From positions 32,001 through 96,000 of IMG/VR virus record IMGVR_UViG_3300005856_000023: a stretch of DNA of 64,000 nucleotides, one strand, 5' to 3'. Shown here piece after piece: positions 2,253 to 60,380 of the stretch. This stretch comes from a virus. Each line of letters begins with the position of its first letter. Positions within the stretch are counted from its first letter, which is position 1. Both the position numbers and the translations under genes were made by a program. The notes beneath the pieces were generated by a model. The model saw only the letters and a list, made by a program, of their open reading frames with translations. It searched no databases and was not told the origin of the DNA.

Positions 2253-3932
2253 ATGCTTGGTTTGCTAGAGTTATTGAAACCATCAACATATGTGATTGAA
2301 GTAACATTCTTCTGTGCATTACAAAATAAAAGGATGTTAGATTTAATCAAAAACATTTTACCCTATTGGAGTATGCTTGCAACTGAGGAGCAAAAACCTC
2401 TATTATCAATGTTAACTACATTTGTGAATAAGGGTATACCAGAACATGATTTCAAACTATCACAGCCATTGGAGTTTTATTACAAACTATTTGACGTAGC
2501 AAATCTCGATGAATTGCAATCAACAATACTGGATAGGTTATACAAAATACAATTTGTTGCTAAGGTATATGAGAAGATTCAACTATTCCAACATCCAATA
2601 CATGACTATGATAAAGTTGAAATGATTGTTAGTGAATTGTTATCTGATCTTAATGAAGTTAGAGACAAAGAACTAACAGAGAAAATCTTCAATGCAAAAG
2701 ATTTATTAAATGTAACAGAAATATCTGATTTGAAATTGGTTAGTTTGATACCAGAGTTAGATTTAGTATTGGGAGGATTTTATGTTAATAATCTTTATCT
2801 GTTTGCTGCAGGATTGGGACAGGGTAAATCATTTACATTACTTAACATGGCAGTAGGATTTTCAGTTTTCCTAAAAGCATTTGAAAACTACTATAAAGAT
2901 TGGTATGGTAAAAAACCAGTTGTTTTATACATATCACTGGAAAATACTAGCGTTCAGATCAGGAACAGATTATACACATTACTAAATGATTGTACATTAA
3001 CAATACCAAAAGAAAAAAATACTCCTTTGAAACAATTATTCCAAGCTGTGGATAACTTCTATATCATATCTTTATCAGATGAGATAGTGGATTATGTTTA
3101 CATAGAGAATATTGTGTTGTCGATGCAATCAAAAAATATGCATCCAGTTGTCATTGTGTTAGATTATATGGATGAGTTATATGCTCCTGCTAACATAAGT
3201 GAACATAGACATAAGTTAGGTTATAATGCTAGAATGTTAAGGAAGATAGCTATGAATCACAATCTACTAATTGTATCTGCTACACAGATAAACAGAAAAG
3301 GTATTGAAGAAGGTAATATATCCATTACACATTTATCAGAATCAATAGAACATGGTAAAGTAACAGATGTATTAGTCGGTTTAGTTCCAATAACAATAAA
3401 CAAAGGTTATATTATTACAAATCAACCTTTAACCAAAGATATTATTAAAAGCAATCTAGACAACAAAGCAGAAGCAATTGGAATGATAAATAGCATGTAT
3501 CTCAAAGTATTAAAGAATAGACCAAATCTATTAACAGGCTTTGGATATGCAATTAGTAATCAAAGTTTAACAGGATTTAGATCTCTCATATATGGATTGA
3601 ATTATGAAATCTCAATCTATCTTGTTCCGAGTTTACATTCATATTTAGGAGATGATTATATAACTACAAACTATGATGTATTGCATAGCAGCGTTACAAA
3701 TAGAATAGCACCATTCGTAAAAAATCTTGATGTTAAGGATTACAGTAAATATCAATACGGATTGGAGTTAATATCAAATCTACTTGGTATTGATATAAAA
3801 CAAATAAATGTAAACAATGAAAACATAGAAAATGACTTTGTAGTAAGTAATATCAATCAAAACATAGATGCACTTGATGTCATAGATGATTTTGAAACAT
3901 TCGAACAAAAAAGTTTAGATTTAGATATATAG
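2253..3932 (+). CDS. dnaB: DnaB-family (SF4) replicative helicase
   Basis: Walker A AAGLGQGKS, YISLEN, Walker B VLDYMD, SATQINR, VLKNR. Confidence 0.9.
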   Translation: MLGLLELLKPSTYVIEVTFFCALQNKRMLDLIKNILPYWSMLATEEQKPLLSMLTTFVNKGIPEHDFKLSQPLEFYYKLFDVANLDELQSTILDRLYKIQFVAKVYEKIQLFQHPIHDYDKVEMIVSELLSDLNEVRDKELTEKIFNAKDLLNVTEISDLKLVSLIPELDLVLGGFYVNNLYLFAAGLGQGKSFTLLNMAVGFSVFLKAFENYYKDWYGKKPVVLYISLENTSVQIRNRLYTLLNDCTLTIPKEKNTPLKQLFQAVDNFYIISLSDEIVDYVYIENIVLSMQSKNMHPVVIVLDYMDELYAPANISEHRHKLGYNARMLRKIAMNHNLLIVSATQINRKGIEEGNISITHLSESIEHGKVTDVLVGLVPITINKGYIITNQPLTKDIIKSNLDNKAEAIGMINSMYLKVLKNRPNLLTGFGYAISNQSLTGFRSLIYGLNYEISIYLVPSLHSYLGDDYITTNYDVLHSSVTNRIAPFVKNLDVKDYSKYQYGLELISNLLGIDIKQINVNNENIENDFVVSNINQNIDALDVIDDFETFEQKSLDLDI

Positions 3933-4008
3933 TTTTTTTGCTATGGAATACAATAAGTTTAATAACAAAAAAAGAGGGAGGAGGAGAGTAGCCATGAAGA
4001 GCTTCTAA

Positions 4009-5745
4009 TTACCTTTGAACGATAAGTCTACCTACTACATTAGGATAGATTACAGATGCTCCGAATCTATGAACAGCAGTCATTGCTTGACCAAGAGTAT
4101 TTGCAGGATAAGGTATCATATGGGTTGCATAAGGTGCATATATTGCAGTGGAGAAGAATTCTTGTTTGGATTTGAGTACAAGCAAGTTCCTACCAACAGG
4201 AAGTATAGGTGTAGGTAATACCTTTATCCACTCTTCAGATCCATCTTTGCTTCTGGTGTATATCTTGAATGGGTCTGCTTTCGTTACAGGATCGGATACC
4301 CACTTACCTATGTTAACAAGTAGTGAAGCATCTTCAACATTCATCACAAGTATGGGTTCTACTTCGGGAACAGGTGTATTCCTGAGTATCTTACCAAGCA
4401 GGTTAGATATTGCATAAGGGAAATGAGTCATAACGTACATGCCTGGTCCCCAACTGTAATCAGCAAGAGCATCAGCGGTCATATCTACAGATTCTTCTAT
4501 GTTATGAACAAGTGATGCATTATACAAGTTCATTAGAAGGAATGCATCAGTGTTAAGTGCAATTATAGAAGATAGTATGCTGCTTACTTCGCCGAGTATA
4601 TCGAGATTGAAGAGAACTTGAGCATCAAAAGCCATTTCAGGAGATACAAGTATTGTGCTTTCAAGTCTATTCTCCGCAAGAGTTTGTCTTGCAAGTTCAA
4701 GTCTGAGCTTCCTAGCAGGATCTCTCGATTCATAGGCTACTCTTGCATATACCTCTATACCTTGAATTGCAGGAGCAGTTCCACCAGTTGCTATAACAGT
4801 TATAGTGAAATCACCAGATTTGAAGTCTACTCTACCAGTTACATTAACAGTGTAGGTATTGGCACCAATGGTTGCAGTTCCAGCTCCGGTTATAGCACCA
4901 GACGATTCAATATTGGAAGATACATTTATTGTTCCAGATGTCGTATCATCAGTTATACGAACAGCTATTACTCTAAAATCAGGTGTTACCCTAAGCTTAT
5001 TGTCAGGAGCAACAGTCGCAGGAGGCAACAAGTTAGCCTCACGTAGAATGTTATACACATTACCTCTTATTATCTCTTCTGCAGCAGGAGTTGTAGCGGG
5101 AACAAATACACCCTGCCCAGGAGCTGTTCCGTAATAGCCGAGAGAATCTCCACTGAGAAGTCTACCAGTTGTCATGTCTACTGATAGATAGGATGAGAAT
5201 GGATAAGGATTTGTAGAGTTAGTTAATTCCTCATAAAACCTGAAGAAGTAAACATACGAACCTGGAGCAGACATATTCCTGACATCATATACTTGCGTTG
5301 CAACAAGTCTTGGATACATAAACCTTATCAGAGGAGCCAAATACATAAAGTATGGTATCACATTAGCAGATGTATTTTCTGTAGCTATAGCCCTAAGACT
5401 ATTTTCATACAAAGTTTTAATGGCTTTGGATAGTGAATATACTTCTGCCTCTGATAGATTACCTTGTTCTGCAACTATATCGGTTACTATTGCATTGGAT
5501 ATTAAATCAATTACAGTCCTATCACCTTGTAAAGCTCTTTTTGCTAGTTCTGATATTTTATCTACAAATTCTGATGGATTTTTAGATGCATTAACCTTAG
5601 TTATATCCGAATAAAATTCTTTCACTATTTTCTTGGCATCTTCAGCATTCTTATTTGCCATTTCCATTGCTAGACTGTAAATTCTTTTTGTAGATATAAT
5701 TGAGTCAGATGGGTAAAATCTTGATAGTCTTACGTCTTTATCCAT
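4009..5745 (-). CDS. major capsid protein, T4 gp23-like, with probable N-terminal propeptide
   Basis: LIRFMYPRLVATQVYDVRNMSAPGSYVYFFRF and SPEMAFDAQVLFNLDILGEVSSILSSIIALNTD parallel conserved gp23 blocks; possible protease site AIATE|N; AGC-N11-ATG. Confidence 0.85.
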   Translation of the reverse strand: MDKDVRLSRFYPSDSIISTKRIYSLAMEMANKNAEDAKKIVKEFYSDITKVNASKNPSEFVDKISELAKRALQGDRTVIDLISNAIVTDIVAEQGNLSEAEVYSLSKAIKTLYENSLRAIATENTSANVIPYFMYLAPLIRFMYPRLVATQVYDVRNMSAPGSYVYFFRFYEELTNSTNPYPFSSYLSVDMTTGRLLSGDSLGYYGTAPGQGVFVPATTPAAEEIIRGNVYNILREANLLPPATVAPDNKLRVTPDFRVIAVRITDDTTSGTINVSSNIESSGAITGAGTATIGANTYTVNVTGRVDFKSGDFTITVIATGGTAPAIQGIEVYARVAYESRDPARKLRLELARQTLAENRLESTILVSPEMAFDAQVLFNLDILGEVSSILSSIIALNTDAFLLMNLYNASLVHNIEESVDMTADALADYSWGPGMYVMTHFPYAISNLLGKILRNTPVPEVEPILVMNVEDASLLVNIGKWVSDPVTKADPFKIYTRSKDGSEEWIKVLPTPILPVGRNLLVLKSKQEFFSTAIYAPYATHMIPYPANTLGQAMTAVHRFGASVIYPNVVGRLIVQR

Positions 5746-5867
5746 AACGTTCTTCTGCTAAAAAGTTGTGAGTAAACAACTTTAAATATTAATGCAAAAA
5801 ATTTTTTACAAGTATGCTAAAGATAATACTATAAGAAAACAAACATTTTATTATTGAATGCTATCAT

Positions 5868-7190
5868 TTAGTCGATATTATTCTCAAATTGCCAAACAAG
5901 ATAGTTAACCGATCCAACCTTCTTTGATTCTGGTGTTACAATAGGGTCCAAGTATCCCAACATATCTGTTACAAGTCTTATTTTGTGACTTAATCTCTTC
6001 ATTGCAAATTTATGAGCATATGTAGCCTTTAACTGTAACATAACTTCTGATATAGGATTATGTATTTTATCCTCTACATATTCAACTTGCATTATCTTAT
6101 ACAAAATGGATAGAGATGTTGAATGCTTTCTGGGCAATTTTCGTGTTCTAATTCTCTCATACAACAAATGCATTAGTTGTCTAACCAATGGATGCAATAA
6201 GAATGTTTTGAATCTTACTGTTTTGCTTTTTAGTGAGCTATACAAACCACAATTCTTTATATAATTGTAGAAGTCATTGCTTGGAACAAATGTAAATAGA
6301 AAGTAATAGGGATCTTTAAACTCCTGTCTAACCAATGGATCAAATATAGCACTTATCTCTCCATATAATAATGTCATTATCTCAAAAGAATGTTTGCCCA
6401 TAAGTCTTTCTAATAACCTACTCCCACCATAGTCCTTGAATGATTTTGCAAATCTTCTCCTATAATTGCTTTCATATGTTACATCTACAATTAATTGTTT
6501 ATTGACTGATGTATCTGTATACACAATAGATGTTTCCGTTTCTTGTATTGTTATGTATTTAACTTTCTTTCCTTTTGTTACAGTAGTTACTTTGTTTGAT
6601 TGATTATTACCTAACTCTTGCATATCAACTTGAAAGCCAGTTTGTTGTAAAACCATATACAACAAATCTAACAAGGATAAATTACTTTCCAATAAACTTT
6701 CATCATTCTTGAGCAAATACAATATCAAAAAGTTCAATACAGGTAATGTTTTATGTTTTGATTCATATAAGATTGGTTTTGTTTCATCTAAAATATTTTT
6801 AAACACTACTTTCCTATACAGATTAGATAATTTTGCATCCATACTCTCTGTTCCAAATCTATCCAAGAACTTATCTGCGATTGAGTAAATAAATACATAT
6901 CGTTGTCCATTAACTATTATGTAGTTTCCAATAAACCTAGGAATGAATGTTTTGTAATTACAAATTGCTCCATCCTTTTTATCCTTCAAACTATATTTGA
7001 TAGTGTAAACAGATATTAATCCGTCTGTTGACATGAGATCTTCTTCCTCAATTTGTAAATCAATTAATTCAGCATCAATCAGATCACAAAACCAAATTAT
7101 GGTATTTTTAACATCTTCTGTAATATTGTTTAATACTTGTTTGCGATATGAAATGGGTTTGCTGTCTATGTTTAGGTTTATGAAATACAT
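5868..7190 (-). CDS. multisubunit RNA polymerase beta subunit, N-terminal fragment
   Basis: FIPRFIGNYIIVNGQRYV (beta IP..G.FIING.ER block); C-terminal GYLDPIVTPESKKVGSVNYL (beta CPxETPEG.N.GL block); start moved to fit CTAAATTT-N6-ATG. Confidence 0.85.
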   Translation of the reverse strand: MYFINLNIDSKPISYRKQVLNNITEDVKNTIIWFCDLIDAELIDLQIEEEDLMSTDGLISVYTIKYSLKDKKDGAICNYKTFIPRFIGNYIIVNGQRYVFIYSIADKFLDRFGTESMDAKLSNLYRKVVFKNILDETKPILYESKHKTLPVLNFLILYLLKNDESLLESNLSLLDLLYMVLQQTGFQVDMQELGNNQSNKVTTVTKGKKVKYITIQETETSIVYTDTSVNKQLIVDVTYESNYRRRFAKSFKDYGGSRLLERLMGKHSFEIMTLLYGEISAIFDPLVRQEFKDPYYFLFTFVPSNDFYNYIKNCGLYSSLKSKTVRFKTFLLHPLVRQLMHLLYERIRTRKLPRKHSTSLSILYKIMQVEYVEDKIHNPISEVMLQLKATYAHKFAMKRLSHKIRLVTDMLGYLDPIVTPESKKVGSVNYLVWQFENNID

Positions 7191-7238
7191 GATAGTAAAT
7201 TTAGTATGTGTGCTCAAAAAAAATGTTTTATTTTTTTG

Positions 7239-7862
7239 TTATAGTAATATATCATCTGAATCTGATGATACATTAACAGTCACATCGGATAGATCCAAAT
7301 CCAATTCATCTTCTATGGTTGTTTTAGCAGTTTCGGATACTTTCTTTTTAGATGGCACTTCTGTTGTATATTTATTGTATAGTTCCCAGAATCTTGTGGC
7401 ATCTCTTTCAATTCTTTTTAATGTGGCACCTTTTCTCATTAGTTCTTCAATTGCATTAATAACCCTATCAATCTCCTCTTTGACATTTTCCAATACTTCA
7501 TCATTTATCTCATTATCCATTTTTGTTCCAATTTCTCTTAGATATAATGTATGATTATCTTTTATCACTGCTATGTATGGAGATGTTTTTAATCCTGTAG
7601 CTGATGTCAATCTGTTTGAATAAATCAATGCTACTGTATATCCATTCATATCATACAATTTGGTTCCTAACAGCAAATTCTCTCTTTTCTTAATCACAAT
7701 TACATGATCTTTGGATATTGGCTCAACTATTTTGAATTTTTTATCCACTGGAAATCCGACTAAATTGCTACCTACTGTTGTACAATAATATGTTTGTTCA
7801 TCATACTTAATAGGTTTGAATATGCTTGATAATTTTTCTACAGAGATAACTCTGATCTTCAT
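7239..7862 (-). CDS. hypothetical protein with acidic C-terminal tail
   Basis: ORF; class-1 promoter at ATG 7862; ends EDELDLDLSD...SDDILL. Confidence 0.75.
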   Translation of the reverse strand: MKIRVISVEKLSSIFKPIKYDEQTYYCTTVGSNLVGFPVDKKFKIVEPISKDHVIVIKKRENLLLGTKLYDMNGYTVALIYSNRLTSATGLKTSPYIAVIKDNHTLYLREIGTKMDNEINDEVLENVKEEIDRVINAIEELMRKGATLKRIERDATRFWELYNKYTTEVPSKKKVSETAKTTIEDELDLDLSDVTVNVSSDSDDILL

Positions 7863-7892
7863 GTCTATAAATTTAGACAAGTTGTAAAAAAC

Positions 7893-9044
7893 TCAAAACC
7901 AATCGATTTCATTTGAAGTATCTTTAACTGGAGATCTACCCAAATACATAAACAAATACAAAACTAAATGCTTTGCTATGTTTGAATACGTTTGCAATGA
8001 ATACTTACTTAGTATATCCTCTCTAATCTTAGGTATTGATATTGTTACATTATATAGTTTATTTATCTGATTCATATTGGTAGCATCCAATGGAAATCCG
8101 ACTACACTTATGATTTTATTTACAATCAATTTTAATTCATCATAACTCAATTTTTGTAATTGTTGAATGTATTGTTTGAATGTTTGTTTTGATATTTTGT
8201 TTCCGAGCATCTCGATTATAGTATCAACTAAATCATCTATTGGTTCAGGTTCCATTTTGAAGTTAATTATTGCATCATGATAATACCTACTGTAATCCCG
8301 TTCAGCAATCTCATCTTTAGTAATTTTCTTCTCTTTTGCTATATGTATTAGATTGTTTTTCAATCTGTTAGCATAGTTATTAACTCTTGCCCGCAAATAA
8401 CCCGTCCATACATTATGTATTTTTTTGGGTTCTCTATCAACTAATATTAATTGAGCCTTTCTTTCTGCAATTGACTCTAATAATCCTGATATGGATGAGA
8501 AATTGCTTGGATGTAATAAGTTAGATCTGGGTAATAATCTTCTGGCTTGTTCAAGATCATGCTTGTTAACTATTACAACAGACTTAGTTACTTGAACTAT
8601 AAACATGATAGCAGAAAACATAAAATAAAGATTACGAAGTATAGCTAGCTTATCTATAACTGGAATGTTATCACAATCTACTAACGCAACAACATCAGCA
8701 TGTAAGACAATAGCCGCAAGATGCCATCTGTTCATATAGTAAATTGAATTAGATAAATTTGGGTCAAGGGTTTTATGAAGTTTGAATACTAATTCCCTTA
8801 GTTCTTTTTGAACTATGCTAGTATTCGTATGCATCTTATCAAATAGTAGAGGACGAAATTTTTCTACACTGATAACATTTAAGTTGTCAACGTATGGTCT
8901 TATTTGAGTTGTAATTCTATCGGTTGTACGATACAGAGTTAGCATATAATCTTCAAAATTTTGAAAACCAAAATAGCGCACAATATGCCCAATTAGTTCT
9001 TTTTGTTGATTATTTAACCAGTGAACATATTTACAGTTCGCCAT
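7893..9044 (-). CDS. hypothetical helical protein; candidate RNAP promoter-specificity subunit
   Basis: 383-aa ORF with class-1 promoter, two genes from the RNAP beta fragment; function is inferred from context only. Confidence 0.35.
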   Translation of the reverse strand: MANCKYVHWLNNQQKELIGHIVRYFGFQNFEDYMLTLYRTTDRITTQIRPYVDNLNVISVEKFRPLLFDKMHTNTSIVQKELRELVFKLHKTLDPNLSNSIYYMNRWHLAAIVLHADVVALVDCDNIPVIDKLAILRNLYFMFSAIMFIVQVTKSVVIVNKHDLEQARRLLPRSNLLHPSNFSSISGLLESIAERKAQLILVDREPKKIHNVWTGYLRARVNNYANRLKNNLIHIAKEKKITKDEIAERDYSRYYHDAIINFKMEPEPIDDLVDTIIEMLGNKISKQTFKQYIQQLQKLSYDELKLIVNKIISVVGFPLDATNMNQINKLYNVTISIPKIREDILSKYSLQTYSNIAKHLVLYLFMYLGRSPVKDTSNEIDWF

Positions 9045-9063
9045 AATAGCTAAATTTAGCTAC

Positions 9064-9189
9064 GTTGTGCATTACTAATACGTAAACAGTTGTGAACTAC
9101 TCTATCTTGTAGAAGATGGAGCTTCCTACTTCACAGGAGCTATACGCTCCCTCCCTATAGAGAATGGAGACTTCTTACCTGATTTTTTT
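9064..9189 (+). ncRNA. candidate structured small RNA
   Basis: Preceded by the palindromic promoter TAGCTAAATTTAGCTA (9047-9062); GC-richer than background; stems CTCTATCTT-GTAG-AAGATGGAG and AGCTTCCT..AGGAGCT; ends at T7. Confidence 0.4.
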
Positions 9190-9207
9190 AAAAGCACATA
9201 ATGAAAT

Positions 9208-10947
9208 ATGTTTATTCCAAATCAACTTGCACCTGGTGTTTACATCAATGTTGTATTTGCGCCTGAACCATTAATTGGATTACCTGAAAAATACAATGCA
9301 TTATTCTTTATTGTAGCAGAGAAAGGACCTGCAAATAAACCAGTGTACATAACATCAGCTCAAAGATTTCTTGATACTTTTGGTCAGCCAGATCCGAAAT
9401 TCCCATTAACATCACTTTACGCATATGAATATGTTAGGAATGGAGGACCAGCATATGTGGTTAGATTACTTCCGAGAAATGCTACAAAAGCTAATGCTAC
9501 CTTAGCTCTTGTTCCTGACCCAGTTGATGCAAATACCTATGTATGGGCATATGGGTATGTAGATTACTCTACTAATACATTTATTGGTCGCGATGAAATT
9601 AATAATAGAAGTATATCACTACCTGTATCTGCAACTTATGCTCCACCAGAACCTAACAAAGCAGTTATAATTGCACAGTTTGGTGAATACGGTATGTATT
9701 ATAACACCTATAGATTGAGATTTTTATTACCGTTACTTAGAACAAACAAAACATTTAATGTAGTTATAGAAAGAGTTGTAGGAACACAAACTGAAAATGT
9801 TGCGGTATTCAATGGTGTTACTTTTGAACCAAATGTAAATGAATTGGGATACCCAACACAAATTAATCATAGTCTTTACACATTTAACCAACCAGCATTT
9901 GAATACTTAAAGGCTAACTACATAATAAAGTATAAAGATTATGAAACGAATACTGTTACAGATACTAATACAAGACCAATAGATTCTGTTGACATAGTGT
10001 ATTCAACTAATACAATATGGAATTTTGCAGGTGGTTCTGATGGTGGATTAAGAGATCCGCTTACAGGTTCGGTAGATTTCTCATTGTTTGCCGATCTAGT
10101 TGTAGAAGCTGTATATGGTTATACTACATTACTTCCAAACAGAATACAAGGACTTATTGATGATGAAACAATATTCATCAAATACATTGTTGATCCCTGT
10201 GATGAGAGATTTCCCTATGCAAAGAGAAGATTAGTATGGAATGCTTTAGTTGATTTGGCTCAATCCAAGTATATGCTTAATGCTGGTGCTATAGTTCTGA
10301 GTAACATAGCTGATTTGTTTGACTGGTCAGATATAGGACTTTTAGATTCAACCAATCCTCCTATACCTAGACATTATCTACATGCAACTTACTATTCAAA
10401 AATTGAGGATGTTGATGGCAGAATATATCCTCACCTTAGATATGTAGTTCAAAATATTGCTAAATTAAGAGTACAACAACAAAGTATTGAACCACTTGCT
10501 GGTATTATTAATGCTACGATAACAACAGGAGTAGATGTTATACCGAGATTAACAGTTCCTGAGAGATCAAGACTGGTAGAACTTGGAATTAACTTTGCTC
10601 ACAAAGATCCTTTCTATGGTGTATTTACTGATCTTGATAGAACTACATCACTTGCTCTCGGTAAATTTCTGTATGTAATTGAGGACGTTGTTGATATTAA
10701 GAGAGAGCTAGTTAAATTGCTAAGACCGTTTGTACATAAATTAGAAACTTATGATTGGGAGAGCGTCAAAAGTTTAATCATAGACTTCATACTAAAACCA
10801 AGAGTAGCAAGTGGTTTAATAAAGGAATATGAAGTTAACTTGAGATTATCCGAAGAATTAACTAGACAAAATGTACTAGGCATAGATATGAATCTACGAT
10901 ATGCTCGCGAAATAGAACGTATTGCAGTAACAATATATGTGAGATAA
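9208..10947 (+). CDS. contractile tail sheath protein
   Basis: APGVYINV, AEKGPANKPVYITS..F...FG, YVVRL, FAGGSDG, LVELGIN and the typical sheath C-terminal domain. Confidence 0.92.
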   Translation: MFIPNQLAPGVYINVVFAPEPLIGLPEKYNALFFIVAEKGPANKPVYITSAQRFLDTFGQPDPKFPLTSLYAYEYVRNGGPAYVVRLLPRNATKANATLALVPDPVDANTYVWAYGYVDYSTNTFIGRDEINNRSISLPVSATYAPPEPNKAVIIAQFGEYGMYYNTYRLRFLLPLLRTNKTFNVVIERVVGTQTENVAVFNGVTFEPNVNELGYPTQINHSLYTFNQPAFEYLKANYIIKYKDYETNTVTDTNTRPIDSVDIVYSTNTIWNFAGGSDGGLRDPLTGSVDFSLFADLVVEAVYGYTTLLPNRIQGLIDDETIFIKYIVDPCDERFPYAKRRLVWNALVDLAQSKYMLNAGAIVLSNIADLFDWSDIGLLDSTNPPIPRHYLHATYYSKIEDVDGRIYPHLRYVVQNIAKLRVQQQSIEPLAGIINATITTGVDVIPRLTVPERSRLVELGINFAHKDPFYGVFTDLDRTTSLALGKFLYVIEDVVDIKRELVKLLRPFVHKLETYDWESVKSLIIDFILKPRVASGLIKEYEVNLRLSEELTRQNVLGIDMNLRYAREIERIAVTIYVR

Positions 10948-16352: not shown

Positions 16353-16354
16353 AA

Positions 16355-51073: not shown

Positions 51074-51077
51074 GTTA

Positions 51078-52108: not shown

Positions 52109-52173
52109 AATTTTAATTTTAGACAAGTTTAGACGTAGTCAAGGTTTTTTTATGATTTTTATCATGTTTCCTT

Positions 52174-52257: not shown

Positions 52258-52259
52258 AC

Positions 52260-52560
52260 ATACTATGCGGGCAAGCAACTTCTGAAAGAGATTGAAGATG
52301 CACTGCGAGAAGGGAAAACGGAACTTGTGAATAAAGCGGTCAAATGGTGGGTCTACGATAAGCAGCTATACAGGCTAAAAACGATTGCATGGACGGAGAC
52401 TGCACATGCTTATATGAAAGCAACGGTGGAACTCATAAAGGATGAAGAAGAGATAGTGGGCTATCAGTGGAGGCTGTCAAAAAGCCATCCGAGGGCAGAT
52501 ATCTGCGATGTTTATGCAAACGTGGATTATGGGCTTGGTAGAGGCGTGCATCCAAAAAAA
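52260..52560 (+). pseudogene. internal fragment of a Mu gpF/SPP1 gp7-like head morphogenesis gene
   Basis: RLKTIAWTETAHAY...GYQWRLSKSHPRADICD.YA.VDYGLGRGVHP; no proper start or end. Confidence 0.7.
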
Positions 52561-52582
52561 ACAGTAACCCTTTCCTTCTTCT

Positions 52583-53347: not shown

Positions 53348-53367
53348 CTCTGACACCTCCTTGTCTG

Positions 53368-53729
53368 TTAAGCTTCTTGGTAGTGAATGCTATAGCCCTC
53401 CTCTTCATAGCCTTTCAGAAAGCCCTCCATTTCCTCTCTTTTCAGCAGATGGCATGGGTAATCTCATAAACCCTAATCCTTGAGTGATAATTCCCACCAT
53501 CATTATGCATAATCCGGTCGTATTTCCAACAATCACACGGTTCTTCTACTATCACACACTCCTCTAATACTTGTAGGTTGTCTATCAACTCCGCCAAGCC
53601 CTCATCACCATTTATCCCATACACCTCATCATACCCAAAGCTTTCCACAACCACATTGCCAAGCACTCCGCGGTCGCAATACTCTCTCATGTCCCTTTCG
53701 TATTTGCACATGGTTTGCAACTCTTTCAT
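53368..53729 (-). pseudogene. frameshifted/internally deleted hypothetical gene (ORF stops at 53442)
   Basis: Protein-like tail LLKREEMEGFLKGYEEEGYSIHYQEA* continues in another frame. Confidence 0.5.
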
Positions 53730-53813
53730 GACTTCACCTCCTCTTAAGGTTTTCATAATTTTAATTTTAGACAAGTTTTAGACTTATCATGTGTAGTATG
53801 CTTAAAGTATATT

Positions 53814-54371
53814 TTACTCAACCTGTATAGCATAAAGATCTTTTAAGTTGCGATACATGCCCATGTAATCCAAGCCATATCCGATAATCCAGATGTTTTC
53901 ATTGTCTATGGTGAACAGACTGAAATCTGGCTTGTAGACATTATCTTTAGTTACGTTTGCCAGCAATGTAGCTGTTATTATTTGTTTAGCTCCTTTATTT
54001 TGTAAATGTTCTGTTACAAAATACAATGTTTTGCCCGTTGCCACTATATCATCAAGCAATAATACAACTTGATCTTTTATATTGTGATTTATGTCTTTAA
54101 TGAATTTAATGTTTCCGGATGTGAATGAGTTTCCATAACTGCTTACTTGGATGAAATCCAAAACAACAGGTATTTTGCTGAAAGCAGATGCTACATCTAT
54201 TGTGAAATAAATTGCTCCAGTTAGTATACCGATAATGAATAGTTTATTGATATTGTTTGTAATTAATTCTCTTTCTAAGTCGTTTACAAATTCGTTAATA
54301 CTTGATGTTATTTGTTTGTTATCAATAAACAAATGAGCTAATTTACCATCAGGTAAATGTATATATGACAT
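53814..54371 (-). CDS. hpt: hypoxanthine/guanine phosphoribosyltransferase
   Basis: GILTGA, VSSYG, VLLLDDIVATGKTL, IGYGLDY...YRNL; SD AGGAGGT before ATG 54371. Confidence 0.92.
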   Translation of the reverse strand: MSYIHLPDGKLAHLFIDNKQITSSINEFVNDLERELITNNINKLFIIGILTGAIYFTIDVASAFSKIPVVLDFIQVSSYGNSFTSGNIKFIKDINHNIKDQVVLLLDDIVATGKTLYFVTEHLQNKGAKQIITATLLANVTKDNVYKPDFSLFTIDNENIWIIGYGLDYMGMYRNLKDLYAIQVE

Positions 54372-54530
54372 AGTCCACCTCCTAATGCGTTTTGTAGCAA
54401 TAACAATTTGTATATAACCTTCTCTAGCCAATCTCTCTATAAATCTTCTTTCTGTGAATGTTAATTTGGAGTGATATCTTGCAATACCGCAACGTACTTC
54501 AGGGAATTTGTACTTAGATTTCTAGCAAAT

Positions 54531-55154
54531 CTACTTGTAAACTAAAATCTCTTTGAGATCAATAACTTTAACACTATATGGTTGCATACTACAGAATCTA
54601 TCATCAGGTTTATATGCAACATATATATACATATCATCAATAATGGTGTAATATAGAGGCATAAATGTATTTGCAATAACTAGCTTATCATTTTCTACGT
54701 CATAAACTATTTCTACACTTGATCTTGGATATTTTTTTACTGATTGCATAAACCATTTGTTAATGTTCTCATAATCAATAGTCTCATATATATCAAGCAA
54801 AGCCTGACTATCAATCTTAATGTTTTTGTTTATTTGTTCTGCATTTGGTATTATTCCATGATGTGCTACATAAAATCTATTGTTTGTGTAAATATTCGGT
54901 CCATTGTATGTATTTGTTTCTGTTTCTGGTATTGCTCTACTATGTAGTAATAACAACTTAGTTGGCATATATAAATCAACTAGTGTTTTGAATGTATCAT
55001 AATCTTTGTTATGTATTAAGCGAACATTAAAATCATCATCAACAATCAATGCACTGTAATTATCTCTACCTTTTGTTGGCAATATATCAAGCATATAATC
55101 AACTAAATCAGGCTCCAAATAATTCTTGCTGTAGGATAAAACTATGTTACACAT
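54531..55154 (-). CDS. class II (Ntn) glutamine amidotransferase, Gat
   Basis: N-terminal MC, HSRA, VAHHGII, IDSQ; overlaps the queC stop. Confidence 0.85.
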   Translation of the reverse strand: MCNIVLSYSKNYLEPDLVDYMLDILPTKGRDNYSALIVDDDFNVRLIHNKDYDTFKTLVDLYMPTKLLLLHSRAIPETETNTYNGPNIYTNNRFYVAHHGIIPNAEQINKNIKIDSQALLDIYETIDYENINKWFMQSVKKYPRSSVEIVYDVENDKLVIANTFMPLYYTIIDDMYIYVAYKPDDRFCSMQPYSVKVIDLKEILVYK

Positions 55155-55965
55155 GGCTTGCTCCTAAGGTAAGTCCAAATTTCTCAAGTTTTTGTTCTAG
55201 TTTCTGTTTATCCTGTAATGCTACATCCAAGAGCATTTTAACATCTTCATAACTTACCGGTTGAGAATCAAAATCTATTTCAATAGCATAATCTATTTGA
55301 TCTTTAACTTTGGCTCTTTTGAATGCTTCTATTCTAAATCTACATGAGTTACATACTCCACATGCTAAGTTGTTAACAGGATAATAGCAAGATGTTGAAT
55401 TTTTGAAATCTGCTCCAAGATATGCTCCAATCTTTACCAATTCTGTTTTTGTGAATCTTATTGTTGGACTTATGAAGAAGATTGGTTGCTCATAGGGATA
55501 GTATGTAGTAGCAAGAAACATTTCATTCAAATTCTCAAGAAATCTATCTGTGTTATCTGGGTATGCTCCCATTTCACTAATATTGAATGCAAATGATACT
55601 ATGTTAATGTTTAATTTGCGAGCATATTGTGCTCCTATCAGTGCAAACTGTAAATTCCTGTATGGAACTAAATCTACAGGAGCCTCTCTGCCATCAGATA
55701 CATCTACATCAATATCACTATTTCCATCTGTCAATTTTGAACCAAGTATTCTATCACTAATTTTATGCGTGATTAATTTTAATCCATTTGCAGAAGCAAA
55801 TCTTTTTGTAGATTGTAATTCAGCTTCTAATGCTTTTTGTCCATAATCAATAAACAACAATATAGGTTCAATCTTGTAAATATGTTGTAATATGCTAACA
55901 TTAACAACAGAATCTAATCCTGAACTGAATAGTACAATTGCTTTTTGGTTAGTTACGTTTGTCAT
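55147..55965 (-). CDS. queC: 7-cyano-7-deazaguanine synthase
   Basis: SSGLDS, DYGQ, VPYRN, YPD, SCY..ACGVCNSC..R. Confidence 0.95.
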   Translation of the reverse strand: MTNVTNQKAIVLFSSGLDSVVNVSILQHIYKIEPILLFIDYGQKALEAELQSTKRFASANGLKLITHKISDRILGSKLTDGNSDIDVDVSDGREAPVDLVPYRNLQFALIGAQYARKLNINIVSFAFNISEMGAYPDNTDRFLENLNEMFLATTYYPYEQPIFFISPTIRFTKTELVKIGAYLGADFKNSTSCYYPVNNLACGVCNSCRFRIEAFKRAKVKDQIDYAIEIDFDSQPVSYEDVKMLLDVALQDKQKLEQKLEKFGLTLGASHV

Positions 55966-55979
55966 AATGATAAATTTAG

Positions 55980-57300
55980 TTTACCTGCTAACTATCTTAA
56001 TCCAGTAAGCAATAACATTACAATAGATGTTTCAGAGTTTTGTACAATAAAATTGCTAACGATACTAGCTATGTCTTTTCTTATGATATCCTCCCTCTTT
56101 GTTTTCTTTACAGTGAACAGAATCTAGACATGCAAACAGTATAAAACTAAATGTAAACTGCAAACGATAAGTTGTCAAAATAAATTCTCCCTCTTTTTTT
56201 GTTTGGTTTTCTAAGACTATGGACTATAAATTTAAGCACGAATGCAATCAAACTATATCATAATTGTAATAATGTAAAATGCAACTAATGATATAGAACT
56301 GCAAAAGGAAACTTGAAGATTTCCTCCCTCTTTTTGTTTTACTGAACAGTCTATAAGTAAGTTTAGGCATAGTGAATAAAACTTTTACTACACTATAGCT
56401 AAACTATATAGTAAGTATATAGACGATATTTACTATGTATGATACACATATAAAATCAGCATACATTCATAAGCAATATTCAAAATACAGAATACAAAAT
56501 ATAGACAATAAGTCAAATAAGTATATAACATACTAACAGATATTATATAACTGATTTAACAATAGTATTTCTTTGTTTTGTAATACAGTATCTATATTCT
56601 GTATTCTGTTTAATTGTTACATTGTTATCTTCTTTTTCTGATAATCTATCTGTTTTACAATAACGTTATAGATAATATGTATACTGTATTGTTATTATTC
56701 CGTTCCGATATAGTAACAATATTTATAGCTTATTTATCCTCTATACGTTATGTGTACAACATATACCAAATATATAATTTAGCATTGCATGACAAACAGT
56801 GAAATAGAAAGACAAAACAATTAACAGATCAGATACAAAACGATACAATAGTTTCTATGCAATCAAATTTTACTTTTTGTTCTTTGCAGTAGAAATTTAG
56901 CTATTGTGATTACAGATTATAAAGAAAACTATTTTCTGTTTTTTGCAAACATATAATACCGTATTCTGTTATGCTATAGATCATAATCTGTTTACAGAGA
57001 AATATTTCTTTTTTTGTCTATTGCAATAGAATTCATTTTATTTCGATACAACTGTATTTGCAATCGGATTTAAAGAATCTTTCTGCTAACAGATATTTAG
57101 AAACAGTGTATCATATACATTTAAAATGTTTTCTGCAAACAAATATATTAGACTTACATCTATTGTTTAGAAGTTTTAATGCAATGCAATTCAAAAACAG
57201 TAGATAAGAAAGCAATAAGATTTAAGAAATGTATTGCATACAAAAAAAGCAAAATATTCACTAAGTCCACTTTTATAGTATGTGTTATCAAATGTATATT
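55980..57300. other. 1.3-kb non-coding AT-rich region, candidate replication origin or genome-end region
   Basis: No credible ORF; many TGCAA motifs; inverted repeat 56486-56505/56591-56610; three CTCCCTCT(n)GTTT copies. Confidence 0.5.
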
Positions 57301-57314
57301 GTAGCTATCATTTT

Positions 57315-57845
57315 ATGTTTTCATATGAAAGTTTTGATAGCAGCATAAAAAAGATAGATAACATCATAATCTTTTTGGAGTCTAAAGGAAATAAAACAGA
57401 AAGCACAAATTTAAACAATAATGAAAACAGTTTGAAAAACAATGATTTAAGTTTAACGGATTTTAGTTTGAATGAACAAGAAAACAGTTTAAAAAACAAC
57501 GATGATAGTTTAATAGATTTGGATGCAGAGTTAGATATAAATAAAGTTCAATCCAATATAGATGATATAAGTGCTATCAATGTAAATGATATAGATGAAC
57601 AACTATATAAAGAGACATTGCTCTCAAAAATAGATTATATTGTAACTCTGATACAGATATTACATAGGAAACTAATAAATGATCTAGAGAAAAAGTATAT
57701 GTTAAAATTCTTGCAAAAAGAGTTAAGTAAAATTGCAACTGCTATGAACAGCGAAACCAGTATAAACAATGTTGATGAATATCTTGATGCTATCATTCAG
57801 AAATTGGAAGCATTTATTGCAGAGCAAATAACAAAAAAAATCTAA
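57315..57845 (+). CDS. acidic hypothetical protein, possible head/scaffold component
   Basis: AGC-N9-ATG; internal ENSLKNND duplication. Confidence 0.65.
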   Translation: MFSYESFDSSIKKIDNIIIFLESKGNKTESTNLNNNENSLKNNDLSLTDFSLNEQENSLKNNDDSLIDLDAELDINKVQSNIDDISAINVNDIDEQLYKETLLSKIDYIVTLIQILHRKLINDLEKKYMLKFLQKELSKIATAMNSETSINNVDEYLDAIIQKLEAFIAEQITKKI

Positions 57846-57854
57846 TAGTACTGG

Positions 57855-58550
57855 TTAGGTTTTATTTTTGTATACGAGTTTAACTCCATCTAGTTTCTTT
57901 ATATCTTCTGCGGTTAAATATTTGTTGTTTTTGGCTTGCTTTCTATCAACACCAAGATACATAGAACCGTTATTGAACTCTATTATTTTGTAGCGGTATA
58001 ATAAAGGTTTTAGTTTACTTAGTTTTGCTACTAATTCTTTGTCTTGCTGTAAAGCTTTAATTTTTTGTTCTGTAGCAATAACATCAAATGATATATTGTT
58101 ATTCTTTTTAGTGTTTGTTTCTGCATCCACTTTTGGTGTTTCTTCATTATTATTATTAGCAGACTCTAGGTTCAATTGTACTTGTTTGTTTTCTGTATTA
58201 CTCAATATGTAAGCAATTATACTTGGTAAAACAAGGTTAGCAAAAGGAACAAATATAGTTATTGATACTGAGAGTAAAGAGACATCTGTCCATAGTTTTG
58301 TAGTTGCAGTCATAACTAAAAACCAAACAAATGCTCCAAATGATAAAGCAATAATCTTTAGAATTAATTTACGATAATAGATAGCTACAAACGAAAAGTA
58401 TGCTGCTAATAATTCTACACCTAACGATAATGGTATTGTCTGTAACGTATGCACAGCAAAATATCTATAGACATAAACCAGATCTACAAATATGAACATG
58501 AGTATTAGTGTGTATATAGTTAAGCCAGAAATCATAAAGAATTTCTGCAT
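57855..58550 (-). CDS. membrane protein with about four N-terminal TM helices
   Basis: Four hydrophobic stretches in the first 115 aa; basic soluble C-terminus. Confidence 0.75.
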   Translation of the reverse strand: MQKFFMISGLTIYTLILMFIFVDLVYVYRYFAVHTLQTIPLSLGVELLAAYFSFVAIYYRKLILKIIALSFGAFVWFLVMTATTKLWTDVSLLSVSITIFVPFANLVLPSIIAYILSNTENKQVQLNLESANNNNEETPKVDAETNTKKNNNISFDVIATEQKIKALQQDKELVAKLSKLKPLLYRYKIIEFNNGSMYLGVDRKQAKNNKYLTAEDIKKLDGVKLVYKNKT

Positions 58551-58576
58551 TTAGTTTAGCTAATAAAAACAAAAAA

Positions 58577-59368
58577 TTATTTGTTAAATAAACTGCATTT
58601 GCTTTGATATTTACAAAACCTACATAGAGGGTTTTTTCTTGGTTCGTATTCTGATCTTAATACTTTATCTGTAAGCTCATTAATAGTCTCTAATACCTCC
58701 GTCTTACTTTTTTGTTCAGTATTATTCACTATCCTTACATCCATATCAGCAAATGATACATAGATAAAATATGATTTCTCTACATCAAATAGAGAGGTAT
58801 AAATACTTAGTTGCCAGTTATAATCATCGTAAATATATAGATTTGATAATGGTTTGCTAGTTGTTTTTAAATCAACAATTGCATTTGATAAAATAAGATC
58901 TGGTGTTAACTTGAGTATGAATTTATCATTTTCAAACAGATAAACACTTTCAACTTCTATTATTTTTTGATTAAAACTTAGTATGGCTTGAAATGCTTTC
59001 TTAGCTAAATATCCATACTCTATAGAGTCTTTAAATAACTTTTTATTCTCTATATTGTTTGTTTCTTCTAATATCTCAGCTATCGTATTATCAATAACTT
59101 CAAGCAGTAATTGATTTGTTCTTCCATTTAAACCAAATAGATATGATCTCAATAAGAATTCAACTGCCCTATGAATAATAATTCCATGTGCTAAAGCTAT
59201 ATTCCTGGGTAAGTCTAGTTTTTGTTCCTTCTGATCCATGATAAATAGTTTGAAATATAATGGACATCTCTTATACGTAAGCAATGAGTTTGTTCTCCAA
59301 AATACCTTGTTATTTTCCAATATGCTAAATCCATTACTTTTTCTATCCAGCAATCTAGAGATATTCAT
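58577..59368 (-). CDS. Cas4/AddB-like PD-(D/E)XK exonuclease with 4Fe-4S cysteines
   Basis: CP..G.IIH..PD..VDLKT..QLSIY..CRFCKY...C. Confidence 0.88.
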   Translation of the reverse strand: MNISRLLDRKSNGFSILENNKVFWRTNSLLTYKRCPLYFKLFIMDQKEQKLDLPRNIALAHGIIIHRAVEFLLRSYLFGLNGRTNQLLLEVIDNTIAEILEETNNIENKKLFKDSIEYGYLAKKAFQAILSFNQKIIEVESVYLFENDKFILKLTPDLILSNAIVDLKTTSKPLSNLYIYDDYNWQLSIYTSLFDVEKSYFIYVSFADMDVRIVNNTEQKSKTEVLETINELTDKVLRSEYEPRKNPLCRFCKYQSKCSLFNK

Positions 59369-59441
59369 AATCTCAAATTTAGCTGTGATGTCTAAACATT
59401 CATAATCAAACAATTTATACAACTAAACTAAAATTATAGTT

Positions 59442-60380
59442 ATGGGTTTGCTTGTTGAGAAATACAGACCAGATTCACTCGAACATGTTGTACTCCCTTA
59501 TTATGTAAAGGAGAAAATAAAACAAATGATTGATAGCAAGGATATACCAAATTTGCTTTTGTATGGTCCACCAGGAACAGGTAAAACAACCATAGCCAGA
59601 ATAATAATCAAAAACATTCTAACCAATGAGAAGAATGCTCTAATATTGAATGCTTCTGATGACAGAGGCATAGATGTTATACGTAACAAAATTACTCCTT
59701 TTATATCTGTTAAACCTGCAAATGATAATTTTAGGATTGTATTCATGGAAGAAGTAGGTGCACCACAGGGTGGCTTAACAATGGCAGCACAATCAGCATT
59801 ATTGAATATAATTGAAGATAAGCATACTTATGCTAGATTTATAATGACAACAAATTTTCCTGAAAGATTATTGCCATCCTTAAGATCTAGATTTGTTCAA
59901 ATAAAAATAGAAGAAATGCAAAAAAATGATATGCTTGATAGATTGAGATATATATGCGAACAAGAACAAATACAATATGATGATCAACAATTAATGAGAA
60001 TAATAAACACTACATATCCGAATATGAGAAATGCTCTACAACTATTAGAAGGATGTATTGTGCAGAGAGCAAATGTTAAGTTAATTGATGATAATCTGTT
60101 AACAAAAGCAATAGCCGAAATTTATAGTATTAATAGAATTGAACTCAGCAAACAATTCATAGTTGCATTATGGAAAAACAGAAAGAATTTCACGAAAGAA
60201 ACAATCAAAACTTTACCGTTTGTTATTGATAAAATTGAGGATATTCCTATTGAAACTGTTATGCAATTACTAGACAAGAAGGATGAACTTGAATTGATTG
60301 AGATGATGATAGATTTAAGAAAAAAGAATAAAGATGCTAGCTTGATAGATTTGATTGCTCAGATACTTAATAGTGATTAG
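59442..60380 (+). CDS. clamp loader subunit (RFC small/gp44-like)
   Basis: VEKYRP, GPPGTGKTT, LNASDDRGIDVIR, LRSRF. Confidence 0.92.
   Translation: MGLLVEKYRPDSLEHVVLPYYVKEKIKQMIDSKDIPNLLLYGPPGTGKTTIARIIIKNILTNEKNALILNASDDRGIDVIRNKITPFISVKPANDNFRIVFMEEVGAPQGGLTMAAQSALLNIIEDKHTYARFIMTTNFPERLLPSLRSRFVQIKIEEMQKNDMLDRLRYICEQEQIQYDDQQLMRIINTTYPNMRNALQLLEGCIVQRANVKLIDDNLLTKAIAEIYSINRIELSKQFIVALWKNRKNFTKETIKTLPFVIDKIEDIPIETVMQLLDKKDELELIEMMIDLRKKNKDASLIDLIAQILNSD

Follow-up and report, generated by a model that had tools for sequence, protein, structure and literature searches.

A probable deep branch of the phiKZ/AR9/YerA41 phages from an Aquificaceae host, with two RNA polymerase sets and an RFC-like clamp loader

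Introduction

Nearly all known phages that encode their own multisubunit RNA polymerase (RNAP) are mesophilic jumbo phages. The RNAP biology of the phiKZ/AR9 type is covered in the sections of a review consulted here (PMC12908238), which also describe a chimallivirus core genome of 68 genes arranged in conserved blocks. In the relevant sections of Iyer et al. 2021 (PMC7824862), the phiKZ-like group is described as having neither a classical clamp nor either primase type (DnaG or the archaeo-eukaryotic type, AEP), and RFC plus clamp is assigned to T4-like groups. Here we describe a phage genome in which own RNAPs and an RFC-like clamp loader occur together. The window analysed is a stretch of 64,000 nucleotides, bases 32001-96000 of one IMG/VR virus contig of 129,010 bp (IMGVR_UViG_3300005856_000023), and the region of interest, 2253-60380, runs from the start of a DnaB helicase gene (2253) to the stop of the RFC-like gene (60380). 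Coordinates are those of the window unless marked as genome coordinates.

A first-pass annotation had read this region as a hybrid of a T4-like head, an own multisubunit RNAP, a DnaB helicase with an AEP primase and an RFC/clamp pair, belonging to a new family-level lineage with an Aquificaceae host. We consider it likely, as the joint best explanation of the data, that the genome is a very deep branch of the phiKZ/AR9/YerA41 supergroup, and that the phage is complete, virulent, contractile-tailed, thermophilic and Aquificaceae-infecting. The apparent hybrid is one old lineage with a replication module more conventional than that of phiKZ and not a recent mosaic. It is small and divergent for a supergroup member and has an RFC-like loader in addition; it represents a known kind of phage in a new deep lineage.

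The contig has 30.7% GC and no N, and 142 open reading frames (ORFs) were obtained by simple non-overlapping calling, covering 95% of its length; 71 ORFs of at least 100 amino acids (aa) lie in the window. No tRNA was found in the 129,010-bp contig. When 60 window ORFs were scanned against Pfam, 18 had a match to any family and 42 had none, and most genes are orphans.

Two sets of RNA polymerase genes

Seven multisubunit RNAP genes are present on the contig, two in the window and five outside it, and they form two sets.

Window 35954-37339, minus strand: RNAP beta' N-terminal piece (catalytic double-psi barrel region), Pfam Rpb1_2 1.8e-17
Window 5868-7217, minus strand: RNAP beta N-terminal piece of the split set, phmmer E 0.0012 to AR9 gp105
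Set with unsplit beta: beta of 914 aa (genome 104165-106909), beta' C-terminal piece of 545 aa (genome 107594-109231) and the beta' N-terminal piece of 461 aa in the window
Split set: the beta N-terminal piece of 449 aa in the window, beta C-terminal piece of 530 aa (genome 21644-23236), beta' N-terminal piece of 431 aa (genome 16788-18083) and beta' C-terminal piece of 308 aa (genome 99453-100379)

Pfam matched the beta' N-terminal, beta and beta' C-terminal regions twice each, and the copies are paralogous to each other. The beta' N-terminal piece in the window also matches PHROG 2987 (2e-23) and beta'/gamma chains in the PDB (about 1e-20), and has a 36%-identical homologue in the distant relative L185. 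The beta N-terminal piece had no Pfam, PHROG or PDB match; its assignment comes from the phmmer search among about 880 ORFs, in which it matched AR9 gp105, annotated as the N-terminus of the non-virion RNAP beta subunit, and from a fork-like motif (PIVTPESKKVG) at its C-terminus, recognised by eye. The best phage matches of the beta pieces are in AR9/PBS1, YerA41, Carin-5, Vibrio D69, phiR1-37 and S6, at 22-37% identity. The earlier assignment of an own multisubunit RNAP to this phage is therefore borne out by the Rpb1_2 match, the gp105-like piece and the five further pieces outside the window.

As in phiKZ and AR9, one of the two RNAPs may be packaged, injected with the DNA and used to transcribe early genes, while the other would be made for later genes. 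Two own RNAPs would make transcription independent of the host. For structural work they would offer minimal, sigma-independent RNA polymerases in a heat-stable form.

Capsid, tail and packaging genes

The structural and packaging genes recognised in the window are as follows.

Window 4009-5745, minus strand: major capsid protein, gp23 family (HK97 fold), Pfam Gp23 7.3e-9, PHROG major head protein
Window 9208-10947, plus strand: contractile tail sheath, PHROG 23 1.1e-8, phmmer matches in YerA41 and Carin-5
Window 41646-43334, minus strand: terminase large subunit (TerL), PHROG 2 1.8e-17
Window 43339-45081, plus strand: probable portal protein of 580 aa, divergent from TerL, assigned by position and size
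Window 12784-14841, minus strand: virion-type protein of 685 aa with C-terminal M23-peptidase-like His motifs, seen by eye

The capsid protein scores 35.9 bits against Pfam Gp23 (cut-off 24.4), compared with 405 bits for the T4 capsid protein. The same family matches the capsid proteins of AR9 (6.4e-8), YerA41 (1.6e-13), Carin-5 (2.6e-11) and T4 (1.6e-122), and does not match that of phiKZ. A weak gp23-type match thus appears to be normal for the AR9/YerA41 part of the supergroup, and since the capsids of AR9, YerA41 and Carin-5 match as weakly, it is no signal of hybrid origin. The TerL gave tblastn matches to 21 phage records, all at 22-30% identity (BpSp, Goe21, phiR1-37, the Staphylococcus S6 group, LPJP1, Fusobacterium JD-Fnp, Synechococcus S-CREM1 and two Pseudomonas phages), all of them RNAP-encoding jumbo phages or phages similar to these, with no T4-like terminase among the matches at E<=1e-3. 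The contig also encodes a Peptidase_S80 prohead protease (Pfam 8e-8), the family of phiKZ gp175. The T4-like head, taken in the first-pass annotation as one half of a T4/phiKZ hybrid, consequently loses that meaning: TerL, the S80 protease and the RNAP pieces all point to the phiKZ/AR9 supergroup.

The putative portal protein had no family or PDB match. The 685-aa protein, for which we obtained no family match and nothing useful from a PDB phmmer search, has a 26%-identical paralogue outside the window (genome 121142-122410, E 4e-26) and may be a tail-associated cell-wall hydrolase. A PDB phmmer search with ORF 23008-24282 likewise gave nothing useful.

Gene content and relatives of the lineage

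By phmmer (E<=1e-3), 15 of the 142 ORFs have homologues in AR9, nine each in YerA41 and Carin-5, and seven each in phiKZ and T4. Of the five references, AR9 (Bacillus phages AR9/PBS1, Takahashivirus) therefore shares the most ORFs. The features in common are two split RNAP sets, the gp105-like beta piece, a gp225-like primase candidate, a split family-B DNA polymerase (PolB) with an exonuclease half, a MoxR-type ATPase, a RecA-like protein, the prohead protease, the virion protein gp112 and the weak Gp23-type capsid match. AR9 differs in being mesophilic, in its genome of 251 kb and in having no RFC-like gene, and the phage described here differs from AR9 in its unsplit beta (914 aa) and in encoding ThyX and a uracil-DNA glycosylase (UDG) domain. 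The DNA of AR9/PBS1 contains uracil; ThyX and the UDG domain argue against DNA of that kind here. With 15 of 142 ORFs shared at 22-37% identity, the phage falls outside Takahashivirus.

The Yersinia phage YerA41 and the Cobetia phage Carin-5 resemble it in their small genomes (145-155 kb), a beta subunit that is in one piece and about 925 aa long (best matches, 1e-41 and 5e-40), beta' pieces, the sheath and a Gp23-type capsid protein. They differ in having a single RNAP set found by phmmer and no RFC, and they did not group with the phage in trees. With phiKZ and the Chimalliviridae the phage shares the concept of virion and non-virion RNAPs, the S80 protease family and an SNF2 helicase homologue (8e-26); it differs from them in its RFC-like loader and in a capsid protein of the Gp23 family, which phiKZ's is not by Pfam, and the chimallivirus core genome is not reflected in its seven ORFs with a phiKZ homologue (phmmer). 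The T4-like phages (Straboviridae) have in common with it an RFC/gp44-type loader, a family-B polymerase, a UvsX-like recombinase, a class I ribonucleotide reductase (RNR), a gp21-like protease and a capsid protein of the Gp23 family. They rely on host RNAP, a gp17-type TerL and gp45, whereas this phage has its own RNAPs and no detected gp45; the Gp23 scores (35.9 vs 405 bits), the TerL that is not T4-like and the lack of a gp45 match place it outside Straboviridae. On genes it belongs to the split-RNAP supergroup, with beta and beta' homologues in pieces and in two sets.

A divergent member of the Chimalliviridae whose chimallin has diverged beyond detection would also carry two RNAP sets, as the chimalliviruses do in the sections of PMC12908238 consulted, and an S80-type prohead protease, and several large ORFs without assigned function could accommodate the missing protein. 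Neither chimallin nor PhuZ was detected, at a divergence high enough that the absence of chimallin is not shown. The phiKZ matches are, however, limited to seven general ORFs, none of them in the chimallin region, an Atlas search with the 704-aa ORF found no match, the genome measures about 129 kb, and AR9 shares more ORFs (15) than phiKZ (7). We regard this placement as improbable, and prefer a phage that, by gene content, would lie within the phiKZ/AR9 supergroup and in none of its described groups.

The lineage appears to be deep and very isolated, as at most 15 of the 142 ORFs match any of the five reference phages. The capsid protein had no tblastn match in 50,697 phage records, and 52 relatives at E<=1e-3 (five at E<=1e-30) among 1.84 billion representative proteins. 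JGI metagenome contigs contained 11 near-identical capsid copies (92-98%) and three short fragments, together with eight contigs whose capsid proteins are 33-36% identical. Such more distant contigs (capsid identity 32-36%) also carry homologues of the unsplit beta (44%), the beta' N-terminal piece (36%), the RecA-like protein (41-47%) and DnaB (33%), as well as ligase-like, QueE and RNR small subunit homologues, which suggests that a wider uncultivated clade of RNAP-encoding phages exists around this genome. Scans of viral contigs with the capsid protein, with its alignment and with the RFC homologue P0062 returned a near-identical record or nothing. No description of such a phage was found in the literature searched, and the 'moraphage' paper (PMC12619734), in the sections consulted, concerns phages without RNAP.

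Clamp loader and replication module

The clamp loader is what truly sets this phage apart.

Window 59442-60380, plus strand: RFC small-subunit-like clamp loader ATPase, Pfam AAA 8e-15 and DNA_pol3_delta2 1e-9

The protein also matches the Pfam RCF1-5-like_lid and Gp44_lid domains. Its PDB matches are led by the archaeal RFC small subunit 1iqp (3.8e-34), followed by eukaryotic RFC2-5 (1e-30 to 1e-24), T4 gp44 (1.3e-16) and E. coli gamma (3e-9), and in a search against T4 ORFs it matched gp44 at 4.7e-19. The motifs EKYRP, GPPGTGKTT, NASDDRGID, MTTN and SRF (at the SRC position) can be read from the sequence, and represent the boxes of the RFC/gp44 clamp-loader family, among them Walker A, sensor 1 and the SRC-type arginine finger; the Walker B motif is MEEV and not DEAD. 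Six homologues were found at 44-51% identity and 94-99% coverage, one of them on a 125.6-kb contig, and the next tier reaches no more than 43% identity, with 64-75% of the length aligned. One member of the homologue clusters sits in a metagenome-assembled genome (MAG) labelled Thermoplasmatales. The GC content at third codon positions (GC3) is 0.233, within the range of the core genes (0.18-0.27), while recently acquired genes stand at 0.41 (RNR large subunit), 0.45 (a KH-domain gene) and 0.49 (an island gene).

None of ten RNAP-encoding phages searched (AR9, YerA41, Carin-5, phiR1-37, BpSp, JD-Fnp1, S6, LPJP1, Vibrio D69 and phiKZ) has a real match to the RFC-like gene; Vibrio D69 and phiKZ gave short P-loop matches only (E 0.0035 and 0.0012). 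This agrees with the earlier remark that a clamp loader is unusual in such phages. Among cultured phages the nearest matches are gp44 proteins of T4-like phages, at 29-36% identity and E down to 1e-32 in 2,677 records. A sliding clamp was not found: Pfam DNA_PPF (gp45) and PCNA_N had no match at E<=1 in the contig, and T4 gp45 matched no ORF by phmmer, in a search that did not extend to the beta-clamp family, PCNA_C or gp62. Of the RFC/clamp pair proposed earlier, the loader thus stands and the clamp does not. An orphan loader has a precedent, since Iyer et al. 2021 (PMC7824862), in the sections consulted, describe a subset of myoviruses with an RFC-like loader and no detectable clamp. An RFC-like loader in a lineage reported to be without clamps bears on how such phages replicate processively. 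ORF 57855-58550 (231 aa), which adjoins the RFC gene, was considered as a clamp and rejected, being a membrane protein by eye; a PDB phmmer search with it gave nothing useful.

The other replication genes and candidates in the window are listed below.

Window 2253-3932, plus strand: DnaB-like replicative helicase with no fused primase domain, Pfam DnaB_C 2.3e-9
Window 21873-23015, minus strand: RecA/UvsX-type recombinase, Pfam RecA 3.4e-15
Window 16355-17008, plus strand: candidate AEP of 217 aa with three motif-like strings seen by eye
Window 18402-19460, plus strand: MoxR-like AAA+ ATPase, PHROG 1297 3e-43, Pfam AAA and AAA_5, AR9 homologue 1.3e-8
Window 867-2201, minus strand: DUF2201 metallopeptidase-like and VWA-like protein, Pfam DUF2201_N 1.7e-7 and DUF2201 1.3e-5

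The DnaB assignment proposed earlier is upheld by DnaB_C (37.5 bits against a cut-off of 27) and PHROG 19 (2e-28). A 33%-identical DnaB homologue adjoins the capsid gene in the distant relative L183, and 41-47%-identical homologues of the RecA-like protein do so in L181, L185 and L186. The family-B DNA polymerase is split over two distant genes outside the window, an exonuclease half (genome 122421-124241) with a fused N-terminal uracil-DNA-glycosylase domain (Pfam UDG 1.2e-23) and a polymerase half (genome 18117-19673). Both halves match T4 gp43 (1e-14 and 1e-4) better than the polymerase of AR9 or phiKZ. The replication module would thus be more conventional than that of phiKZ, and it is consistent with clamp-dependent synthesis. 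An SNF2 helicase and a ligase-like ORF also lie on the contig outside the window.

A 344-aa protein encoded outside the window is homologous to the 'DNA primase' gp225 of AR9 (5e-7), and this primase candidate is common to AR9, YerA41 and Carin-5. By eye it has a Cys/His zinc ribbon and a TOPRIM-like acidic pattern; Pfam Toprim_2 and Toprim_4 had no match in the contig and a PDB phmmer search gave nothing useful. With this protein, the phage does have a primase candidate of the conventional kind.

The 217-aa candidate carries the strings LFLDVE, GRGLHVF and D..LRV..R.LG..S.K, which resemble AEP motifs I-III and are conserved in all three sequences available, including the homologue P0056. Only two homologues were found among 5.8 billion proteins (96% identity and, for P0056, 55-58%). 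There was no match in Pfam (including Prim-Pol), in PDB phmmer or in profile searches, and no usable match in the ESM Atlas. AlphaFold2 models had a pLDDT of 36.5 from the single sequence and a pLDDT of 48.2 with a pTM of 0.43 from three sequences; with these models the best Foldseek hit against the PDB was at E 0.88 and the best VIA wide hit at Z 3.1, neither search returning a primase. The AEP primase of the first-pass annotation was therefore not confirmed by profile or fold searches. On the three motif-like strings we still lean slightly towards this identity for the ORF.

The MoxR-like ATPase was also considered as a clamp loader and rejected, as PHROG 1297 identifies it as MoxR type; the DUF2201/VWA-like protein is likely its partner. 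In the proposed scheme, the genome would be replicated by the split PolB, DnaB, the gp225-like primase candidate (perhaps with the AEP-like protein) and the RecA-like recombinase, with the RFC-like ATPase placing a ring clamp on primed DNA for PolB; this clamp would be the host's or one that has so far escaped recognition. Of the traits of Iyer 'group 1', a PolB with separate exonuclease is seen here and no clamp was found, but an RFC-like loader and two primase candidates are encoded as well.

These genes also bear on a true modular hybrid, in which a phiKZ/AR9-type phage recently took its head, its clamp loader or both from a T4-like phage. Such an origin would account for the gp44 homologues of T4-like phages being the nearest cultured-phage matches of the RFC-like protein, for both PolB halves being nearer to T4 gp43 than to the AR9 or phiKZ polymerase, and for the Gp23 match of the capsid protein. 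Yet the capsid protein is not among the seven ORFs that match T4 at E<=1e-3, Gp23 matches AR9, YerA41 and Carin-5 equally, and TerL has no T4-like match at E<=1e-3. The RFC-like protein matches archaeal RFC-S (3.8e-34) no less closely than any phage gp44, its GC3 is that of the core genes, and its 44-51% homologues form a separate cluster, clearly set off from the next tier. We consider recent transfer very improbable, and a single old lineage the better account.

It is possible, though we hold it doubtful, that no thermophilic phage (about 70 C or above) with two RNAPs was known before this one, that its genome is the smallest complete one to carry both sets, and that it stands for a basal lineage in which a conventional replisome was retained (a PolB with exonuclease, a loader of the RFC type, a clamp that is cryptic or comes from the host, and perhaps a primase of the AEP type). 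If so, the phiKZ/AR9 ancestor would have replicated like a T4-like phage, and the clamp system would have been lost later in the jumbo lines.

Host and habitat

The proposed Aquificaceae host is well supported by a spacer match, RNR similarity, habitat and proteome composition, which together point to a Hydrogenobacter/Thermocrinis-like bacterium. A search of 90 Aquificaceae-family genomes with window 1-20000 identified a protospacer at 7095-7135, within the beta N-terminal gene, that matches a CRISPR spacer of genome G054 at 41 of 41 nt. The match corresponds to exactly one spacer of an array with 12 copies of a 29-nt repeat, and the spacer check against Aquificota suggested in the first-pass annotation was thereby positive. 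A second scan with window 21000-38300 gave two weak matches (87-90%); three candidates were scored per genome, so that spacers can be missed. The RNR large subunit is 82-88% identical (amino acids, over 1-766) to that of Hydrogenobacter, Thermocrinis and other Aquificaceae genomes, and 58 of 73 RNR large loci are labelled Aquificota. In other phyla identity is 42-49%, with two exceptions, an Acidobacteria-labelled MAG (84%) and the phage contig that was mis-binned (92%).

Of the 31-mers of window 53000-62000, a share of 0.30-0.36 was recovered in each of twenty sequencing runs, which come from 17 studies and carry the labels hot springs metagenome (16), microbial mat (three) and mixed culture (one). 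The IVYWREL fraction of the proteome is 0.432, which corresponds to about 69 C by the Zeldovich relation, compared with 26-44 C for AR9, phiKZ, YerA41, Carin-5 and T4. A 129-kb thermophilic relative that has both polymerase sets would widen the size, temperature and host range of RNAP-encoding phages.

According to the abstract of Palmer et al. 2020 (PMC7689252), no virus of the phylum Aquificae had been isolated as of 2020. Large virulent phages linked to Aquificaceae by a perfect CRISPR spacer match are rare, and the present genome is one. The Thermocrinis Octopus Spring virus group, as presented in that abstract (PMC7689252), comprises uncultivated genomes from the same host group and habitat; they are circular double-stranded DNA with a family-A polymerase, whereas this phage has a family-B polymerase and its own RNAPs. 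No link between the two was found in the present data.

Completeness and integrity of the assembly

Bases 1-174 of the contig recur at 128731-128903 and bases 981-1101 recur at 128890-129010. The start copy (genome 1-1101) holds an 806-nt insert with a 127-aa ORF of 37.5% GC, which is absent from the end copy (128731-129010) and from a second assembly, G001 (88 kb, 95-98% identical). G001 connects 128768 straight to 1018. As the contig ends overlap and G001 joins end to start, we read the genome as probably complete, at about 128.7 kb with a circular map, the contig differing only by the insert at its start.

A contig that held only about half of a jumbo genome of about 250 kb would leave room for the clamp, chimallin and other genes elsewhere. 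CheckV gives a completeness of 50% and IMG/VR labels the record linear, and cultured relatives with two RNAP sets have genomes of 220-280 kb. The start insert probably explains both the label and the estimate, and the ends overlap apart from it, with the second assembly closing end to start. The expected modules, those for head, tail, packaging and replication as well as both RNAP sets, are all there, and small genomes exist in the supergroup (YerA41, 145.6 kb; Carin-5, 154.6 kb). A half genome is in our judgement unlikely, and we retain the complete genome.

The mixture of genes could also come from an assembly chimera of two different phages. G001 is a trimmed form of the MAG contig G002:C110 (94.4 kb), binned as Thermodesulfobacteriaceae, in which segments are joined differently and 6.4 kb of host-like DNA with 47.7% GC is fused inside the RNR gene, the GC declining gradually through the gene; such assemblies can evidently go wrong. 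G002:C110 (bases 1-8700) is likely a host-phage assembly chimera at the shared RNR gene, in a mis-binned phage contig, and because of this fusion it is the more suspect assembly of the two. In the contig studied here, base composition is even apart from the cargo islands, the end wraps round to the start and no segment is without RNAP pieces. Window 44001-47400 and 53339-64000 also occur in contigs of four runs (four studies), in most places at 90-99% identity. Two of them, X6 (4,972 nt) and X8 (5,434 nt), run from 56633 and 56987, respectively, across the RFC gene and on into the tail-fibre region downstream of it, and in G001 the RFC gene is on the same contig as the capsid gene, TerL and RNAP pieces, so that independent runs as well as G001 place RFC together with phage structural genes. 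Chimeric assembly, which had been named as a way in which the earlier reading could fail, left no sign in this contig, and we give it hardly any credence.

Several observations weigh against the reading of a complete, deep-branching supergroup member from an Aquificaceae host. Trees of beta' C-terminal pieces (8 rows) and of beta (6 rows) were star-like with terminal branches of more than one change per site, and grouped only YerA41 with Carin-5 (100/100); no cellular outgroup was included. Because these small trees are star-like, the placement in the supergroup rests on best matches and gene content, and of the proposed family-level novelty the deep, undescribed character stands (capsid search, 15 of 142 ORFs) while the beta and beta' phylogenies do not resolve its position. 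Packaging of one RNAP in the virion would follow from phiKZ/AR9 biology, and either set may be the packaged one; no sliding clamp was matched with Pfam DNA_PPF, PCNA_N or T4 gp45. A single one of the nine spacers extracted from the G054 array matches the phage. To the CheckV estimate and the linear label is added that G001/G002:C110 orders four segments differently, and that window 26333-38331, which holds the beta' N-terminal piece, has no independent assembly support in the present data.

Nucleotide metabolism, 7-deazaguanine and other genes

The remaining genes with an assigned function are mainly metabolic.

Window 38323-40623, minus strand: class I RNR large subunit with ATP cone, Pfam 2e-174
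Window 19863-20963, minus strand: RNR small subunit, Pfam 1.9e-73
Window 40664-41632, minus strand: ThyX thymidylate synthase, Pfam Thy1 4.6e-43
Window 17739-18371, plus strand: GTP cyclohydrolase I (FolE), first step of 7-deazaguanine synthesis, Pfam 2e-30
Window 45704-46465, minus strand: radical-SAM enzyme, probable QueE, Pfam Radical_SAM 1.5e-11 and Fer4_12 4.5e-7
Window 55147-55965, minus strand: QueC, Pfam QueC 4.3e-40, within the QueC region 54531-55965
Window 34588-35805, plus strand: candidate DpdA-type DNA transglycosylase, DSGGFQ motif seen by eye
Window 53814-54431, minus strand: phosphoribosyltransferase of the purine-salvage type, Pfam Pribosyltran 5.5e-23
Window 58577-59422, minus strand: PD-(D/E)XK nuclease, Pfam PDDEXK_1 3.1e-11

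The RNR large subunit was acquired from an Aquificaceae host, and the 3' end of the small subunit gene is 71-82% identical at the DNA level to many Aquificaceae genomes. Nucleotides would be supplied by the host-derived RNR together with ThyX.

The QueE-like enzyme has a 35% homologue in L185. QueC overlaps a 207-aa ORF that begins with Met-Cys and is possibly, judged by eye, its Ntn amidotransferase partner. The DpdA candidate had no Pfam, PHROG or phage tblastn match. FolE, the QueE-like enzyme, QueC, the possible amidotransferase and the DSGGFQ protein together suggest a 7-deazaguanine modification of DNA, and the phage DNA may carry such a base, which would block host restriction.

Variable islands and repeats

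Two variable segments were recognised in the window.

Window 46509-53784, minus strand for all genes: GC-rich (40-47%) hypervariable cargo island with internal duplication
Window 60383-61721, plus strand: insertion polymorphism of 1.3 kb just 3' of the RFC gene

The island is not part of the conserved genome. It is absent from G001 and nearly uncovered in four runs, one contig of run X1 joins 46891 to 53766, and contigs of other runs continue into unlike sequence past 46509. Within it, 47510-47710 and 51191-51391 are 100% identical in amino acids, 47780-48421 and 51461-52126 are 92% identical, and 46890-47396 and 49838-50350 are 65% identical. In other strains (L189, L190 and G001 54479-57395) copies of island genes are found flanked by DnaB and the capsid gene, and the island looks like a hotspot for small mobile genes. 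Island proteins are rich in E, K, R and W.

The insertion holds a GC-rich gene (60543-61715) for a 390-aa protein with a C-terminal KH domain (Pfam KH_1 1.6e-6). It is skipped by contigs of runs X1, X6 and X8 and absent from G001, and searches of genome contigs with close-match patterns found no relative of the protein.

Four tandem paralogues of 172-174 aa (64-82% identical) occupy window 28740-31012; the copy that was scanned had no family match. A hairpin-bearing element lies at 9091-9195, between ORF 7893-9044 and the sheath gene. It is 88-93% identical to the two termini of an intergenic element, about 240 nt long and multi-copy, that occurs in many Aquificaceae genomes. The middle of that element is missing in the phage, and a host copy scored below threshold against Rfam RAGATH-18 (32.8 bits vs 44.9). 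Finally, a repeat of about 120 nt (92-93% identical) occurs at 34062-34183, upstream of ORF 34151-34564, and in the island at 47398-47509 and 51071-51190.

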